Origin: a virus
Lineage: Duplodnaviria > Heunggongvirae > Uroviricota > Caudoviricetes
Virus record (IMG/VR): IMGVR_UViG_3300005831_000057
Direction: 5' to 3' (one strand)
Length of the DNA stretch: 49,348 nt
The position numbers and the translations under genes are program-made. Positions 6,270-16,946 of this stretch are shown in pieces. The first letter of the stretch is position 1; each line of letters begins with the position of its first letter. The notes beneath the pieces were generated by a model. The model did not search any database. It saw only the letters and a program-made list of their open reading frames with translations, and was not told where the DNA came from.

Positions 6270-6667
6270 AAGCTTGGGAATTAAAAGAAGGCGAGATTTA
6301 TATCTTAGCATCAAAAGACGACCAAAATAATACAGACGATGTGCGTTTTAGGATTGAAGATGGAATTTTACAAACTGACGCAGCCTGCGGCGATGATTGG
6401 TTTGATAGCTATCTGTCATATAACGAGTGCGCACGTCTCGAATTTAGACATCGTGCATCTCAAAAATTGATATCACTGCTAAAACTTGTAGATAAAAAAT
6501 ATAAATATATTTCTTCATGTGAAAATAGTTTATTAGTGCTATATGAAGAGTTGTGCGATCAGAATATAACCCCTTATTTATCACTAAAAATGTACGGAAT
6601 CGAAAATCCATTTACGTACGAAGATGGATATATATTAATACAAGATATTATAGATGAAAAGTGGTGA
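6266..6667 (+). CDS. Paralog family member 1 (MKxxELxEG..Y / YKYI..D.G motif family)
   Basis: AAAGGAG RBS; shares N-terminal and central motifs with neighbouring ORFs. Confidence 0.8.
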   Translation: MKAWELKEGEIYILASKDDQNNTDDVRFRIEDGILQTDAACGDDWFDSYLSYNECARLEFRHRASQKLISLLKLVDKKYKYISSCENSLLVLYEELCDQNITPYLSLKMYGIENPFTYEDGYILIQDIIDEKW

Positions 6668-7104
6668 TCAGAATTAAACTGCACGAGTTAAAAGAAGGAA
6701 AACTATATATAGTGGATTCGTATATTAGCGTGTTTACAGTTATAAATGGACATCTAGAAATGCTATTATGTGCGTCATTCGGAGGTAGGTGGATTAGATG
6801 TGGCGATTTTTTAGGCGATTTTAAGCCATGCGTAAAATGTAGCGAAGAGTTTATAGATTTATTGCGATCGTTACATACAGATTATGAATATATAACAATT
6901 AGTAAAGATGGGGTATTAACAGCATACGACAACAGACCGTATATAGTGGATTGCGAATGGGTTTGCGATTGCGAAGATGGTAAATATACTAAAATTTTGA
7001 TTAGCTACGAAATTCCATTTACCGATGTGGATGAAGTGATGGATATAGGAGATATTTTATTAAGAGAAACAACTATAGAATACGAAAACTGGGAAAGGAG
7101 TTAA
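6661..7104 (+). CDS. Paralog family member 2
   Basis: LHELKEGKLY...YEYITISKDGVLTAY. Confidence 0.8.
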   Translation: MVIRIKLHELKEGKLYIVDSYISVFTVINGHLEMLLCASFGGRWIRCGDFLGDFKPCVKCSEEFIDLLRSLHTDYEYITISKDGVLTAYDNRPYIVDCEWVCDCEDGKYTKILISYEIPFTDVDEVMDIGDILLRETTIEYENWERS

Positions 7105-7105
7105 T

Positions 7106-7522
7106 ATGAGGTTTAGTGAATTAAAAGAAACGAATCTATATGAAGCTAGTGGATATGTTAGCATTTTTAGACTCAAAAATGGGCGATTAGAATTAGGTCG
7201 GTGTAATAGCTGGAAAGAAGATGGTCTTTATTTATACCCAATTCCCGAGATGGAGTTTAGACTGTATGTAAAACTTGAGGACGAATTGATGGAACTTTTA
7301 GAATCTTTACGAGAGAGTTATAATTATATGACAATCAGTGAAGATGGAGTGCTTGAAGTGTTTGAGTGTATGCCACACATTGTTGATGGAATATTGAAGC
7401 AAAGTTGTGAAGATTTTAAACATGCTCGCTTTTTACCAAATGTCGAAACTCGATCCGTAGACATATCACATATAGGCGATTTTATAGCAAGAGAAAAATA
7501 TAGGCAAGGAGCTGATTTGTAG
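7106..7522 (+). CDS. Paralog family member 3
   Basis: FSELKETNLY...YNYMTISEDGVLEVF. Confidence 0.8.
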   Translation: MRFSELKETNLYEASGYVSIFRLKNGRLELGRCNSWKEDGLYLYPIPEMEFRLYVKLEDELMELLESLRESYNYMTISEDGVLEVFECMPHIVDGILKQSCEDFKHARFLPNVETRSVDISHIGDFIAREKYRQGADL

Positions 7523-7963
7523 ATGAAGTTTTGCGAGTTGGAAGAAGGAAAACTATATAGATCTGACACGAGTATTAGAATTTTTAGACTTAATCATGGT
7601 GAACTTGAAATGGCAATAACTGGAAATACTTGGGTAAAATCATACCTATTTCAAACTACCATCGACAGAATTAACTTTAGACCATATATTAAGATTAAAG
7701 GCGAATTAATGGAATTATTTGAGTCTTTGAACAATGATTATAATTATATGGCGGTTAGCGAAGATGGAATTGTAGAAGTTTGGAAGGAATATCCATCTGT
7801 CATAAACGAAGATGGCGACCGAGAACTAATATTAGAAGATTGCGAATATGCTCGTCTATTGCCTAATTTAGATATTCCATTTATAACTAAGAGTTACGTT
7901 ATAAAGATAAGTAATTTTATAGAAAGCGAAAGAGAAAAGTTTGTAAAAGGATGTGATTTATAG
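7523..7963 (+). CDS. Paralog family member 4
   Basis: FCELEEGKLY...YNYMAVSEDGIVEVW. Confidence 0.8.
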   Translation: MKFCELEEGKLYRSDTSIRIFRLNHGELEMAITGNTWVKSYLFQTTIDRINFRPYIKIKGELMELFESLNNDYNYMAVSEDGIVEVWKEYPSVINEDGDRELILEDCEYARLLPNLDIPFITKSYVIKISNFIESEREKFVKGCDL

Positions 7964-8389
7964 GTGAATATATACGAATTAGAAGAAGGATATTTGTACA
8001 AAACCGACTCATCTGTTGATGTTTTCAGAGTTAAGGATGGACATTTAGAAAAATACGAGTCTAAAACTTGGCAAGAATCTTGGTTTGGCATAGATCGTGC
8101 TGTTGATTTAGAATTTGAAGTATATACAAGACTAAAAGATGAATTTGTTGAATTACTAGAATCCTTATACCAAAGTTATAGCTATATAACAGTTAGTGAT
8201 GACGGTGTGCTTGAAGCTTACGTAAGTAAACCACACGTAATAGATGGCAGATGGGAATGTAGATACCAACATCATAAATGCACTCATATTTTACTTAACG
8301 TAGACACTCCATTTACAAGCAAAGATGGTGCTATGTATATATGGAAAATTTTATTAAGAGAAGAAACTAACGAAGGATGTGATTTATAG
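7964..8389 (+). CDS. Paralog family member 5
   Basis: IYELEEGYLY...YSYITVSDDGVLEAY. Confidence 0.8.
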   Translation: MNIYELEEGYLYKTDSSVDVFRVKDGHLEKYESKTWQESWFGIDRAVDLEFEVYTRLKDEFVELLESLYQSYSYITVSDDGVLEAYVSKPHVIDGRWECRYQHHKCTHILLNVDTPFTSKDGAMYIWKILLREETNEGCDL

Positions 8390-8866
8390 GTGAGAATTAA
8401 CGACTTAGAGGAAAACAAGGTGTATGTACGCATCGACGACGAAAGCAGCAAAGCTATATTATACAAGATAAGTAATGGCGATTTGTTATATGGCGATTTG
8501 TTATTTAGGTTTAATCAGATATCAGAATGGGATTTAAGCAAAGCAGAATACAACGAAGTGTCTAAATGGAAGTTTAGAGAGTATGACGAAGATTTGTCAA
8601 ATAAGTTTATTGAGTGGCTAAAGCAAGTAGATGGTAAATTTAAATATATGGCTGTTGATAAATGCGGAATCTTAGTTTTTGCAACAGAAAAAATGAAATA
8701 TGTGGCTGTATTTGGATGGCGCACTAATTACCATCTTAATCATGGCTACGAGTTAGAAGATACAGCAATTGAGTTAGATATTAGCCTATTTGGTATATCG
8801 AATCCTTTTACTTTTGACGATGGATGTATGCTTATAAGCAATATAGTAAGAAAAGTTACATATTAA
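8390..8866 (+). CDS. Paralog family member 6
   Basis: INDLEENKVY...FKYMAVDKCGILVF...NPFTFDDG (C-terminus like member 1). Confidence 0.8.
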   Translation: MRINDLEENKVYVRIDDESSKAILYKISNGDLLYGDLLFRFNQISEWDLSKAEYNEVSKWKFREYDEDLSNKFIEWLKQVDGKFKYMAVDKCGILVFATEKMKYVAVFGWRTNYHLNHGYELEDTAIELDISLFGISNPFTFDDGCMLISNIVRKVTY

Positions 8867-12022: not shown

Positions 12023-12041
12023 ATAAAAAGGAGGAGTGAAT

Positions 12042-14750
12042 TTGGCATTAAATAAACAGATATACATATATTCTGTAGATACTGGATGTTTCTATAATAG
12101 TATAGAGTCTGAACATCATAAAAAAATGATTAGATATAGCCGATATAAAAGAATTTTAAAGCAGCTAGACACGTCAAGTTATACAGAAGATAAAAAGCAT
12201 AAATACAAATCATTGTGTACGTTTGTAAATAATAAAATAAGAGAAAACAAAGATAATTTAAAGGCTTCACTTATCGAGAATGTAGAAATAAGAACATTAA
12301 ACGACGAGCTGCTAAATAGCAAAATGGTTATATCTGTATTCGAATCTTCGCTTACTAGAATTATAAAAATAGATACTGGAGAGCTGTCAGAGGATATAGT
12401 TGTAGTTCATTCATTTTTCTATTCAGTGTTTGAGCAAGTGGTTAAAAATGGTTTTATGTTTCGTGGGGAAAAATATGTATATTTAACATCTAGCGCTGGA
12501 CAGATAAGGCTTAAAAAAGGGGTGTTTATAAAAGAAAGCATATTAAGTACTATTAGCAAAACTTTAATGTGTGGACTTACGATAGACGTTATAAACTCCT
12601 ATGGCGGAATGAATGTTAATAAATTTTTGGCTTATCTTGCGTTGTCGAATTCTGCTACAGATATATATAAAGGATTTAACATAGACAGATGTATAGTTGT
12701 TGACGATTTCGAAACTTCTATAAATGGACAGGTTGATCATATTGATGATATTACGTATGAGATAAATAGAGTTACTATGGACGTACCAGTAGCTCATACA
12801 GATGGATGTGGAATGATTTTGCCAACTCTAAGTAATAAGAATTTTATGATTAGACTTCCTTGGATGAAAGGGTTGTTAGCGTCGTTTGATTACGTTAAGT
12901 TTATAAGAGAGAAAAAGTGCAGTCCAATAATAAAGGATATTTATGGCAAAGAATGGGATGTAGTAAAAGATAAGATAAGTATAATATTTACAAAAAGCCA
13001 ATTCAAAATGCATGGATATTATAAAGATTGGGAAGAGTATAAGAGTTATTTTAAAGAGTTTAATTGCCAAGCTGGAATATGTAATGTCGAAGATGATTAT
13101 TTTACAAATGCTACAATAAACTATCAGATGATGCAGACACTAACAGATATAACCGATGACGAAATTGACAAGATTACAAGTAAGTCACTAGATAGGCTTA
13201 ATAAAATCGCAAGCGACAAAGATACTATGCTTAAGGTTTTTGGAGTTAGTAAAAATATTCATAATTGTAGTAATAACTACGAAAATAGCAATCTTCAAAA
13301 TAGTTTAATGATATATCCAGAGTTGTTAAGGGATGAATACTGTAAGAAGGTGCTCGTACAGATAAAGAAGAGCATGGTTAATAAATATAGGTCGGCAAAA
13401 ATAGATGTTAATTGCAAATACACATTTATACTTCCAGATTTATATGCATTTTGTGAACATTTGTTCTGTGGAATATCGAACCCAAAAGGATTAATAAATG
13501 ATGGAAATGTATTTTGTAGATTATTTGATTATGGCAAAAAATTAGATTGTCTTAGGTCGCCTCATCTATATATCGAACATGCAATAAGAAATAATGTTAC
13601 AGACAAAGAATTATGCAGATGGTTTAAGACTAAAGCTTTATACACAAGTTCGCATGATTTAATTTCCAAAATATTACAATTTGATGTAGATGGCGACATG
13701 GCTTTGGTGGTAGACGAAGATGAATTTGTTAAAGTAGCTGAAAGAAATGTAAAAAAATATGATGTAGTACCATTGTATTACAATATGAAAAAAGCTAATC
13801 CATGTAGTATTAATGGAAGCAGTTTGTGGAATGGATTAAATAATGCCTTTAGCGGTGGTAATATAGGATTGTATAGCAACGATATATCAAAAGTATTTAA
13901 TAGCGATGTTTTTATAAATGGAAGTGACGAAGAAAAAAGATTAGCACTAGACGTGGTTAAGATTTTATGCATGGAGTCGAATTACGTAATAGATTATGCC
14001 AAAACTTTATATAAACCTACAAGACCAGAAAATATCGACACTATAGTAAAATCGTACACAAAAAGTAAAGTTCCTAGATTCTTTGTATATGCTAAAAATA
14101 AAGAGATCCACCAAACAACCTTAATGAATGATAGTGTTGTAAATAAGTTAAGTGCAGTATTTAAAAATACACAAACAAGATTTAAGATGGAAAATTTTGG
14201 AACTTTCGACTATAGAAATCTTATGAGCGACAAAAATGTAAGTTTAGATAGCAACGTTACTGAATTATTCACTAAAATAAATAATAGCTATCATTTCGAT
14301 TTAAATAGTAAAAATAAAGATGATAACAAACATGTGATTAATAGTATTAAGAATAAATTGGAAGAATTTGGATATTCTGAAACAAAAGTATCGGATATGA
14401 TTGTTAAGTATATGCATCATAAAAGAAAGACTCCGTCAAAAGAGCTGATGTGGCAGTGTTATGGACATATAATACTTGAAAATCTTAAAAGAAATATAGT
14501 AGAAGGAAGTAAACAATGTAGAAAATGTGGGGAAAGATTTATTCCTAAGTTTTCGAACGAAAGTTTGTGTGACAGATGTGATATACATGTTGTCGTAGAA
14601 ACTAAAGTTATAAAGTGTGTTGGTTGCGAAAAAGAATTAATAATAAAAGCATGGGATATGAAAACTTGTAGATGCGAAGAGTGTAAAAAAATACATAGAG
14701 TTAATTATCAGAGAGATCTTATGCGAAAAAGAAGTAAAAATTTAGCTTAA
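12042..14750 (+). CDS. yonO: YonO-like single-subunit phage RNA polymerase with a C-terminal Cys-rich extension
   Basis: Catalytic LQFDVDGD, TDGCG and RSPH motifs; NKQIYIYSVDT N-terminus; position immediately before the late genes as in SPbeta. Start TTG 12042 chosen from RBS spacing. Confidence 0.88.
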   Translation: MALNKQIYIYSVDTGCFYNSIESEHHKKMIRYSRYKRILKQLDTSSYTEDKKHKYKSLCTFVNNKIRENKDNLKASLIENVEIRTLNDELLNSKMVISVFESSLTRIIKIDTGELSEDIVVVHSFFYSVFEQVVKNGFMFRGEKYVYLTSSAGQIRLKKGVFIKESILSTISKTLMCGLTIDVINSYGGMNVNKFLAYLALSNSATDIYKGFNIDRCIVVDDFETSINGQVDHIDDITYEINRVTMDVPVAHTDGCGMILPTLSNKNFMIRLPWMKGLLASFDYVKFIREKKCSPIIKDIYGKEWDVVKDKISIIFTKSQFKMHGYYKDWEEYKSYFKEFNCQAGICNVEDDYFTNATINYQMMQTLTDITDDEIDKITSKSLDRLNKIASDKDTMLKVFGVSKNIHNCSNNYENSNLQNSLMIYPELLRDEYCKKVLVQIKKSMVNKYRSAKIDVNCKYTFILPDLYAFCEHLFCGISNPKGLINDGNVFCRLFDYGKKLDCLRSPHLYIEHAIRNNVTDKELCRWFKTKALYTSSHDLISKILQFDVDGDMALVVDEDEFVKVAERNVKKYDVVPLYYNMKKANPCSINGSSLWNGLNNAFSGGNIGLYSNDISKVFNSDVFINGSDEEKRLALDVVKILCMESNYVIDYAKTLYKPTRPENIDTIVKSYTKSKVPRFFVYAKNKEIHQTTLMNDSVVNKLSAVFKNTQTRFKMENFGTFDYRNLMSDKNVSLDSNVTELFTKINNSYHFDLNSKNKDDNKHVINSIKNKLEEFGYSETKVSDMIVKYMHHKRKTPSKELMWQCYGHIILENLKRNIVEGSKQCRKCGERFIPKFSNESLCDRCDIHVVVETKVIKCVGCEKELIIKAWDMKTCRCEECKKIHRVNYQRDLMRKRSKNLA

Positions 14751-15078
14751 GCTTTTCATGTCAAAACCCACAAACCCTTATAAATACTAGCTTTCTTATG
14801 TACTCGATCGATTTTTTAGACATAAAAAAGCCTTTAAACCCTTATAAACACTAGCTTTTTTGACGTTTTTAAACTTTTAGCTACATAGGAAACAATAAAA
14901 CTAATATACAAATAATACGTAAGTATGGGTAGCTGGTCTATCTCATCCCCCAAAATAATATCCGAATAATTCTAATTTAATTATAATATATTATTAATAG
15001 TTTGCTTGTCCTATTAAAAAAAGATAAGCCAACGTAGAAAATGCGGACTTCGTAAATATCCGCTAAACTTAAAAATAA

Positions 15079-15304
15079 TTAGATGCAAACAGCAATCATA
15101 CAAGAGTTAGCCGTTTGAGCCAATTTAAAATAGTATCTAGTATTATATAACACGTTAAGATATCCACAGCAACATTAAAATCATATAGGATGAAAAATAT
15201 GATATCTTGTAGTGTAAAGTATTTAGGTGTCAGCAGCAATTATAAGATTTTCTAAAGTCTTGACTATACATTTATGCATAGTTTAGCAAATCAACGACAC
15301 CTAG
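15079..15304 (+). ncRNA. Three tandem copies of a structured RNA motif: closing stem, CAGCAA, variable interior
   Basis: Stems TTAGATGC/GTATCTAG, TAAGATATC/GATATCTTG and TTAGGTGTC/GACACCTAG, each followed by CAGCAA after 2-3 nt. Confidence 0.65.
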
Positions 15305-15310
15305 TAATAA

Positions 15311-15382
15311 TACCTCGTAGCTCAATGGTAGAGCGTCAAGCTGTTAACTTGGATGTTACAGGTTCGAGTCCTGTCGTGGTAG
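15311..15382 (+). tRNA. tRNA-Asn (GTT), CCA not encoded
   Basis: Full cloverleaf: D arm GCTC/GAGC, anticodon loop CTGTTAA, T loop TTCGAGT; one U-U mismatch in the acceptor stem. Confidence 0.92.
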
Positions 15383-15441: not shown

Positions 15442-15514
15442 GCCTAAATAGCTCAATTGGCAGAGTAATGCTCTTGTAAAGCATAGGTTAACAGTTCAAT
15501 TCTGTTTTTAGGCT
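15442..15514 (+). tRNA. tRNA-Thr (TGT), CCA not encoded
   Basis: Acceptor GCCTAAA/TTTAGGC, anticodon stem ATGCT/AGCAT with loop CTTGTAA, T loop TTCAATT. Confidence 0.92.
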
Positions 15515-15561
15515 TAATCAATTAGTTGTATAATAAAAAATAATTTAAAGGAGATGATATT

Positions 15562-15750
15562 TTGGCAAAAGTAAGTAAAAGTCTTTCGTTTAAAAATGCT
15601 ACAATTTCATTAAATGGGGAAACCTTGGTAATAAAAGAATATGACAAGAACGACGATTATGAAGAGTATGACTTATTAAAAGTTTTAAGTGAGTGGATTG
15701 ATGTTTATGGAGTTTCTATAACTGTAAAGCATAATTCAGATCTAGTATAA
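15562..15750 (+). CDS. YonK-like small protein
   Basis: Size, position and the EYDL.KVL.E....VSITVK pattern. Confidence 0.6.
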   Translation: MAKVSKSLSFKNATISLNGETLVIKEYDKNDDYEEYDLLKVLSEWIDVYGVSITVKHNSDLV

Positions 15751-15770: not shown

Positions 15771-16946
15771 ATGGAGATAAAAAGAGTTGATGGAGAAAGC
15801 TATGTAAAGTTTATAAAAAGAATAATTTCTTTGGTGGAACAAAAAACGATAAACTATAACGAAATGGGTGACGCACTTCTTGGAGAAGATAATGTGTATT
15901 CGTCAGATAATTTAAGAAAGTCGTTTTACGTATTGAAGAAGTTGTCAGAAAAAATCGAAGATGATTATGTAGTTACAGATTTCGAAATGGATAATATTTT
16001 AACACAAAAGAAACATGAAGTTATAAAAGAAACTATAAAAATGCGTGATGAACGTAATGAATTAAATAAGAAGCTGCGAGAACAAAGCAGAAAAGAATCT
16101 TTGGTTGAATTGTTTAAAGATATAATTAATGGTTCTGATTGCGAAGGTTTAAGTTATACGCCAAATGTAATAAGCAGTAGCGATAATGATTTAGTTGTGC
16201 ATCTTACAGATATTCATACTGGCATAGAGATAGATAATTTCGCAAACCAATTTAATGAATTTATTTTGAAAGATAGGCTCGCAAGATATATAGATAAGAT
16301 ATTAGAAATACAAAAAAGACATAATTCTAAGGATTGCTATTTAATAGTTTCAGAAGTCCTTTCTGGGATTATACATGAGAATCTAAGAATAGAAAATAAT
16401 ATGAATGTAATACAACAGTTCAAAGTGGCATCTACTTACATTTGCGACTTCATAAAAGAACTTGGCAGTGTATTTGAAAATGTTCATGTTCATACAGTAA
16501 TTGGAAATCATTCAAGAATAACCGCAGACAAGAAAAAGTCTGTAATTGGTGAAAACTTGGATTTTTTAATACCTTATTATGGAAGATCTAAACTGCAAAA
16601 CTTTACAAATATAATCTTTTACGACAATGACATCGAGGAAACTATTTCATGTTTTCATGTAAGAGATAATTTTATAGTTGCGTCACATGGTGATAGAGAT
16701 TGTGCTAATAGAGTTGTGCAAAATATGTCAATGATGCTAAAACAACAGCCTTCAATAGTGTATCTTGGTCACAGACATACAAATGGATACTCAACGGTAT
16801 ACGATACTAAAGTTGTAGAATCTGGGTGTATGAGTGGAACTGATACTTTTGCTATTGGATATAGAATGAGAAATAAGGCAGAGCAAACCGTATCTGTGGT
16901 TAATAACGAAGGATTAGAATGTGTATACGATATAACATTGCAGTAA
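15771..16946 (+). CDS. Calcineurin-like metallophosphoesterase (YonJ-like)
   Basis: HLTDIH, GNH, HGD and GHRH motifs. Confidence 0.85.
   Translation: MEIKRVDGESYVKFIKRIISLVEQKTINYNEMGDALLGEDNVYSSDNLRKSFYVLKKLSEKIEDDYVVTDFEMDNILTQKKHEVIKETIKMRDERNELNKKLREQSRKESLVELFKDIINGSDCEGLSYTPNVISSSDNDLVVHLTDIHTGIEIDNFANQFNEFILKDRLARYIDKILEIQKRHNSKDCYLIVSEVLSGIIHENLRIENNMNVIQQFKVASTYICDFIKELGSVFENVHVHTVIGNHSRITADKKKSVIGENLDFLIPYYGRSKLQNFTNIIFYDNDIEETISCFHVRDNFIVASHGDRDCANRVVQNMSMMLKQQPSIVYLGHRHTNGYSTVYDTKVVESGCMSGTDTFAIGYRMRNKAEQTVSVVNNEGLECVYDITLQ

Follow-up and report, generated by a model that had tools for sequence, protein, structure and literature searches.

CAGCAA-handle RNAs in phage tRNA clusters: a small-RNA family coupled to Ro60-like DUF2828 genes

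The tailed-phage record IMGVR_UViG_3300005831_000057 was analysed as one stretch of 49,348 nucleotides (nt), in the following referred to as the window, and carries three small structured units, U1 to U3, at the head of a cluster of transfer RNA (tRNA) genes. These three units are genuine members of a large, widespread and uncatalogued family of small RNAs, whose ends pair in a closing stem and whose 5' stem strand is followed by the single-stranded heptamer ACAGCAA. For the sake of simplicity, stem and heptamer together will be called the handle. Overall, we consider it probable, with moderate confidence, that U1 to U3 are Y-RNA-like partner RNAs of a phage Ro60-like protein of the DUF2828/DUF7788 type.

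The CAGCAA-handle RNA family

The first unit, U1, spans positions 15079-15140 on the plus strand (62 nt; 15079..15142 if the trailing UA is included). Its closing stem pairs 15079-15086 with 15133-15140 (UUAGAUGC/GUAUCUAG), that is a U-G pair followed by seven base pairs (bp), one of which is G-U, and the motif AAACAGCAA at 15087-15095 leads into an interior of 37 nt. U2 lies on the same strand at 15156-15209 (54 nt; 15156..15211 with the trailing UA), where a stem of 9 bp between 15156-15164 and 15201-15209 (UAAGAUAUC/GAUAUCUUG) encloses the motif CACAGCAA at 15165-15172 and an interior of 28 nt with a short hairpin. U3, again on the plus strand, occupies 15223-15304 (82 nt; 15223..15306 with the trailing UA); it is closed by 9 bp between 15223-15231 and 15296-15304 (UUAGGUGUC/GACACCUAG), its motif AGCAGCAA lies at 15232-15239, and two interior hairpins turn the unit into a three-way junction. 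The interiors of both U1 and U2 hold short hairpins. In all three units the closing stem begins with U-G, CAGCAA stands 2-3 nt past the 5' strand and UA follows the stem. In RNAfold predictions for the plus strand, the closing stem formed part of the minimum-energy structure in 3/3 units, with a fold energy of -17.8 kcal/mol (z -2.65) in the case of U3. The first-pass annotation of this stretch, made from the letters alone, had given the sizes and coordinates, the U-G-opening stems of 8-9 bp, the placement of CAGCAA and the GTA at the 3' end, and the sequence together with a hairpin scan shows it to be accurate in every detail. The layout resembling that of tRNA genes, which it had also described, was recovered by ARAGORN and Rfam: the units lie on the strand of the tRNAs, and U3 ends 6 nt short of tRNA-Asn.

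A first search pattern, derived from U1 and U3, retrieved 12 IMG/VR loci, and the free stem positions were complementary in 12/12. A covariance model built from 14 units (R1) detected 38 units in 140 kilobases (kb) of seed loci, often in tandem runs of two to four. With a second pattern, of the TAAG...CTTG type, at least 117 IMG/VR loci were found, and among the matches listed, 100 of 115 had Watson-Crick pairs at all four free stem positions, against a chance expectation of 1 in 16. In total, 105 units were aligned and used to build a second covariance model (R2). In this alignment, pairing is seen in 98.2% of the stem cells and a change of both partners in 158 cells, compared to 21-56% paired cells in slid controls; compensatory changes occur at 6 of the 8 stem pairs, and the outer U-G is kept in 91/105 units. 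It is important to add that this alignment comes from a model fit, with a bias towards pairing, and that the pattern scans, in which complementarity was not demanded, serve as the independent check.

Family members have a length of 54-105 nt, and their ends pair in a stem of 8 bp consisting of U-G, W-W, A-U and G-C followed by four covarying pairs. The 5' strand of the stem runs into single-stranded NN-ACAGCAA, and the interior between the handle and the 3' strand is freely variable. When bacterial and archaeal genomes were scanned, complementary units turned up in records labelled Clostridia, Bacteroidota, Proteobacteria, Actinobacteria, Spirochaetes, Cyanobacteria and others. The internal covariation that the first-pass annotation had noticed among the three window copies thus holds family-wide. 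Taken together, the pattern scans and the two covariance models yielded over 100 relatives with covarying stems, both from phage contigs and from genomes of many bacterial phyla.

The window units themselves scored 55.6 bits (U1), 52.2 bits (U2) and 60.0 bits (U3) with R1. With R2, the scores were 44.4 bits (E-value, E, of 5e-7), 47.3 bits (E 1e-7) and 45.9 bits (E 2.5e-7), respectively. The R2 search of the 49 kb window, run with the speed filters off, returned exactly three copies. Because R2 gives 44-47 bits to these copies and 15.6 bits to the next best match, the three units are well beyond chance.

The first-pass annotation had been unable to match the units to a named family, and we came to the same result. 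Rfam 15 returned only the two tRNAs, and nothing for the units even at E<=10 in the 243-nt stretch that contains them; matches to RAGATH-26, transfer-messenger RNA (tmRNA) and permuted tmRNA (E 0.4-9.5) were discarded as noise. The literature was searched as well, and no paper on this RNA family was found. Further candidates considered from the sequence, namely an armless tRNA, an integron attC site, a CRISPR repeat or tracrRNA mimic, a box C/D-like RNA and an Hfq (ARN)n site, were dropped as their defining features are missing.

Coupling to DUF2828/DUF7788 genes

The family shows a tight genomic linkage to DUF2828/DUF7788 genes, which mostly stand only a few kb from the units and share their strand. 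The Pfam family PF11443 (DUF2828) was present in 5/5 seed records, two of which are fragments of 15 and 22 kb, versus 0/14 control genomes. A second comparison used 49 records of phages with a YonO-type RNA polymerase, picked regardless of the motif: DUF2828 occurred in 9 of them and an R1 match (E<=1e-3) in 8, all within those 9, while the remaining 40 showed neither. All 8 R1 matches lie 0.3-4.3 kb upstream of the DUF2828 gene and on its strand. Fisher's test gives p ~2e-8 for this co-occurrence, uncorrected for relatedness. Among motif-bearing records that are at least 90% complete, DUF2828 was found in 15/17, versus 1/16 comparison records, and one of the two exceptions carries a non-complementary pattern match only and is probably a false hit.

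Similar trends could be detected at the level of individual loci. The locus itself includes a DUF2828 gene in 56 of the 127 IMG/VR loci among the matches listed. Pairs of a unit and a DUF2828 gene share the strand in 63/64 cases, and 11 units abut the start of the gene with no tRNA between. In bacterial genomes, DUF2828 lies within 8 kb or less at 50/66 loci with a complementary unit, and 54/54 such units are on its strand; non-complementary matches serve as an internal control here, with DUF2828 at 9/54 loci. The first-pass annotation had listed protein-binding RNAs among several options. Because the family is genomically coupled to the Ro60-like DUF2828 protein, this option fits best of those offered, although the binding of the handle to the protein is itself something that we infer from sequence and gene context.

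The unit-associated DUF2828 proteins combine PF11443 with PF25043 (DUF7788). They belong to a family with thousands of members and no assigned function, and a literature search on DUF2828 returned incidental mentions only, in plant and tardigrade papers, with no paper on function found. An AlphaFold model of a DUF2828 protein (predicted local distance difference test score, pLDDT, 79; predicted template modelling score, pTM, 0.76) was compared with PDB structures. Its top 12 matches were all Ro60/TROVE, over the full length and with E-values from 2.7e-9 to 1e-5; they include the TROVE domain of the Thermus phage phiLo (E 2.7e-9) and Ro60 of Xenopus, human and Deinococcus. By sequence, phmmer found no solved relative and no Ro60 chain for the DUF2828 protein. 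The DUF2828/DUF7788 protein is predicted, from the model, to have a Ro60-like ring fold.

A possible mechanism would start from the handle, which may dock on the Ro60-like ring protein, so that the units would regulate or tether this protein as Y RNAs do. The variable interior could specify a second partner or gate the ring; in the window it consists of plain hairpins. The partner of U1 to U3 would presumably be the window phage's own Ro60-like protein. Possible roles of such a pairing include RNA quality control, the protection or repair of tRNAs, and the control of host exonucleases, the latter being reported for phiLo.

Several points speak against this role for U1 to U3. Firstly, the link between RNA and protein is a genomic association only, and the counts given above take in related phages without correction for relatedness. 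Secondly, the complete 75 kb phage G090 carries a good unit and gives no PF11443 match. Thirdly, no DUF2828 or TROVE gene was found in the 49 kb window (tblastn E>0.5; Pfam), and U1 to U3 lie among tRNAs and not beside a protein gene, a position that would also suit a role within the tRNA precursor, as discussed below. A comparable arrangement is seen in a relative with 45% YonO identity (L126, IMG/VR contig 3300045988_166720). This contig shows five R2 matches interspersed in an array of 24 tRNAs that lies downstream of yonO; one of these matches directly precedes tRNA-Asn, and a DUF2828 gene with its own unit is found about 40 kb away. Because this two-site layout exists in L126, the most fitting view of U1 to U3 is, by analogy, that of a satellite set of family members placed in the tRNA/late-gene leader.

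The record L155 (IMG/VR 3300021400_000864), which is 75 kb long, carries direct terminal repeats and is rated 100% complete, has a well-formed unit and no PF11443 match. The partner may here be too diverged to detect, or a copy in the host or a helper may be used.

tRNA neighbours, variable interiors and genomic surroundings

The orientation of the units is strict. All unit-tRNA pairs up to 3 kb apart are on the same strand (444/444). Together with the covarying arms, the outer U-G, which is a mismatch in DNA, and the presence of ACAGCAA on one arm only, this means that the element acts at the RNA level. The same observations bear on the idea that the units are DNA elements, for example small mobile elements of the inverted-repeat type, or sites for recombination or binding, that gather in tRNA arrays. 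Inverted repeats do bound each unit, the flanks are TA-rich, and tandem copies as well as several sites per genome occur. However, an orientation that is absolute relative to tRNAs (444 to 0) and nearly so relative to DUF2828 (63 to 1), arms that covary rather than hold one sequence, the outer U-G and the asymmetric heptamer are not what such elements would show, and we regard this explanation as very improbable.

The units are packed like tRNAs. They lie 0-10 nt from adjacent tRNAs, always on their strand, and within 150 nt downstream a tRNA follows 36/105 units and another unit follows 22/105. In the window, the plus strand of the interval between yonO and yonK showed neither a terminator-like site nor a good sigma-70-like promoter, so nothing of this kind parts the units from the tRNAs. 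U1 to U3 would thus be made in one transcript with tRNA-Asn and tRNA-Thr and be set free by the very cleavages through which the flanking tRNAs mature; cleavage at the 5' end of tRNA-Asn, for instance, would free the 3' side of U3. Judged from packing and orientation, such processing from the tRNA precursor is plausible. A special tie to tRNA-Asn was considered and rejected, as it is the commonest tRNA directly downstream (6 units), but tRNA-Met (5 units) and many others occur.

This packing could also mean that the units act in cis in the tRNA precursor, be it as insulating spacers, as guides or pacers of the cuts by RNase P and RNase Z, or as a tether that keeps a Ro60-like protein on the nascent tRNA transcript for quality control, in which case they would not be partner RNAs in free form. 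The close spacing, the common strand, the downstream neighbours, the uninterrupted interval and the position of U1 to U3 among tRNAs all fit such a role. A plain spacer, however, fails to explain an invariant ACAGCAA and U-G across phyla or the coupling to DUF2828. Moreover, 11 units abut a DUF2828 start with no intervening tRNA, and many unit loci have no tRNA nearby. Altogether, a cis role appears unlikely, if clearly less so than the DNA element.

The variable interior shows a different kind of relation to tRNAs. An interior hairpin with an anticodon-type loop of 7 nt is present in 15/38 units, whereas 200 shuffles of the interiors yielded 5.6 on average and never more than 12, and the tRNA-Lys-type loop CUUUUAA recurs. 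Some family members even enclose a T arm or almost a whole tRNA. The unit at 2622-2726 on the minus strand of locus L084, and units of L108 and L153, carry a GGTTCAAATCC-type T arm and an anticodon-like arm inside the closing stem; the L084 unit scores 37.9 bits with the Rfam tRNA model. These features are compatible with a mimicry of tRNAs in which the units serve as decoys or sponges against anticodon nucleases of the host, or against other defences that target tRNAs, with no need for a phage protein. The first-pass annotation had raised this idea for the window copies, where it finds no support: U1 to U3 have no anticodon-like 7-nt loop, T arm or D arm, and ARAGORN and the Rfam tRNA model detect no tRNA match inside them. 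In addition, conservation in the family falls on the handle and not on the tRNA-like part, and the coupling to DUF2828 points to a protein partner. A decoy function is consequently improbable.

A fourth explanation is that the units form a new class of self-cleaving ribozyme that helps to cut tRNA precursors. They are small, conserved and adjoin tRNAs, they carry an invariant single-stranded heptamer beside a helix, and hepatitis delta virus-like ribozymes are known next to phage tRNAs. On the other side, no Rfam ribozyme family matches, the interior is wholly unconserved, unlike a catalytic core, and the coupling to DUF2828 would be left unexplained. A ribozyme is thus very improbable. In comparison with these explanations, we continue to favour the Y-RNA-like partner of a Ro60-like protein.

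Phage tRNA arrays hold further structured RNAs. The tRNA-shaped genes in L062 (7022-7179 and 8533-8608), L084 (2403-2476), L086 (3421-3491) and L088 (2141-2227) are given 2-nt or 4-nt 'anticodons' by ARAGORN, corresponding to loops of 6 or 8 nt, and some Rfam tRNA matches in phage tRNA arrays extend over 113-150 nt; all of these may be degenerate or insert-bearing look-alikes of tRNAs. A ROOL RNA (306 bits) and two phage tmRNA genes share arrays with units (L087 5041-5620; L088 799-1192; L089 1960-2339).

Regarding the genomic surroundings in the window, the three units sit at the entry to the late genes, between the gene of a YonO-type single-chain phage RNA polymerase and the yonK/yonJ genes. 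The polymerase gene (12036..14750, plus strand, 904 amino acids; tblastn; phrog_8308, E 1.5e-246) encodes a protein with 44% identity to YonO of SPbeta and 47% to that of Clostridium phage D-1873 (tblastn). The units are followed, all on the plus strand, by tRNA-Asn (GUU) at 15311..15382 (ARAGORN; Rfam tRNA 66.3 bits), by tRNA-Thr (UGU) at 15442..15514 (ARAGORN; Rfam tRNA 68.3 bits), which is the last RNA gene ahead of the late genes, by a yonK-like gene at 15562-15750 (Pfam YonK PF09642, E 1.8e-10) and by a yonJ-like exonuclease gene at 15771-16946 (phrog_284 exonuclease, E 1.7e-47). The yonK-like and yonJ-like genes open a late/structural block, and a Tad2-like gene, glycosyltransferases and a terminase lie further downstream. 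The units are presumably transcribed by read-through or from a YonO promoter.

The neighbourhood of yonO suggested that the units could be a promoter or leader element of this polymerase. However, when 80 YonO loci and their 3.5 kb flanks were scanned for hairpins under strict settings, nothing convincing emerged, and R1 detected zero units in 738 kb from these 80 other YonO-phage loci. Because most YonO phages carry neither units nor DUF2828, we take the YonO context as a location and not as the cause of the units. In IMG/VR, single-protein scans with YonO and with the yonJ-like protein found no close relative of the window phage, the best YonO homologue being 59% identical, and in a phage collection the matches shared with the unit region were tRNAs only. 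Scans of metagenome and genome collections for exact 40-mers gave no match.

Several other elements were seen in this part of the window and in its counterparts. Just past the yonO stop, two direct repeats of 35 nt (14763-14797 and 14827-14861) are 83% identical, 64 nt apart and share the core AAACCCTTATAAAYACTAGCTTT. Elements of the form CC..T..TA...CTAGG.TTGA, similar by eye, follow yonO in Clostridium phage D-1873 (L001, about 6670-6775) and in SPbeta (L002, about 6506-6600). These post-yonO repeats may represent a conserved terminator or a signal of the YonO promoter. A perfect TATAAT with TG in front of it is found at 15522-15533, in the gap that separates tRNA-Thr from the yonK-like start; it has no clear -35 and could be a host-type late-gene promoter that skips the RNA genes. 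In SPbeta (L002), the 1.68 kb between yonN and yonK (7025-8705) have no annotated gene, and Rfam places a DUF3800-VIII RNA (47.5 bits) at 8384-8449; this could be what has been mentioned, for the YonO late transcript, as an 'unannotated non-coding RNA'.

Comparison with known systems

Ro60 and its Y RNAs form a classic RNA-protein particle, with links to the quality control of RNA, to the survival of stress by bacteria and to human autoimmunity. To our knowledge, only one type of partner RNA, that with the CGAA motif, is so far known in bacteria and phages. The known partner RNAs of Ro60 have a terminal 5'-3' stem and a short conserved motif, and are encoded at most 4 kb from the Ro60 gene on its strand (PMC4201824, PMC12135203). 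YrlA and YrlB (RF02553; Chen et al. 2014, PMC4201824) as well as Yrl1 and Yrl2 of phiLo (PMC12135203) thus resemble the CAGCAA units in their end-pairing stem and 5'-side motif. Like the units, bacterial and phage Y RNAs are often multicopy near a Ro60-fold gene and on its strand, and some members mimic tRNA.

There are also clear differences. The motif of YrlA is GNCGAAN0-1G/CGAA, in contrast to ACAGCAA here, and no CGAA occurs in 15079-15306. The partner of Y RNAs is Ro60, whereas the DUF2828/DUF7788 protein is Ro60-like in fold only, as predicted. The CAGCAA units are shorter (54-105 nt) than Y RNAs, and most have no tRNA-like domain. Furthermore, U1 to U3 lie at least 34 kb from any such protein gene, while many of their relatives lie within 4 kb of one on the same strand. 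Neither the YrlA (RF02553) nor the Y_RNA model of Rfam matched U1 to U3 at the gathering score or at E<=10. Lacking the CGAA motif, a model match and a tRNA-like domain, U1 to U3 are not YrlA-type Y RNAs.

A second similarity, close in its architecture, concerns the Class I RNAs of the eukaryote Dictyostelium, whose motif reads CCUUACAGCAA. These RNAs (RF01414) have a short terminal stem, an 11-nt motif past its 5' strand, a variable remainder and often clustered genes, and the nearly invariant motif positions are T3, C6, C9, A10 and A11 (Kjellin et al. 2021, PMC7919456). All five positions fit the phage consensus C-u-a-A-C-A-G-C-A-A (..U..C..CAA); U1 to U3 fit C6, C9, A10 and A11, while T3 fits the family consensus and not the window units. 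In contrast to the phage units, Class I RNAs belong to eukaryotes, are equipped with promoters of their own and with a 6-bp stem that starts with G, and are reported to bind the RNA-recognition-motif protein Rnp1A. The RF01414 model gave no match at E<=10 in the 243-nt stretch of the window units.

In the case of phage T4, the species 1 and 2 RNAs are stable small RNAs inside the tRNA cluster. These, ROOL and tmRNA are structured RNAs other than tRNAs that share transcription and processing with phage tRNAs, as the units would, but they are not known to resemble the units in sequence or in structure. As a whole, phage tRNA arrays carry a second cargo besides tRNAs, which in YonO-type phages is partly placed at the entry to the late genes.

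A broader proposal, which is possible but which we would hold only tentatively and think doubtful as a whole, is that the whole DUF2828 branch of Ro60-like ring proteins uses the stem and ACAGCAA as a universal docking tag, from phages of many phyla to eukaryotes, with the Class I RNAs of Dictyostelium being of the same kind. The interior would then serve as an exchangeable adaptor through which targets, tRNA-shaped or other, reach the ring, and sets of adaptors would be timed, one array standing beside the protein gene and a second set, such as U1 to U3, being expressed with the late genes by YonO.

Next to the Ro60-Y RNA particle, the data suggest that a second pairing of a Ro60-like protein with RNA exists, one that is far more widespread. 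A handle combined with a variable interior offers a clear and testable design for binding, mutagenesis and structural work, and the likeness to Class I RNAs could supply a candidate partner for a long-unexplained class of eukaryotic RNA.
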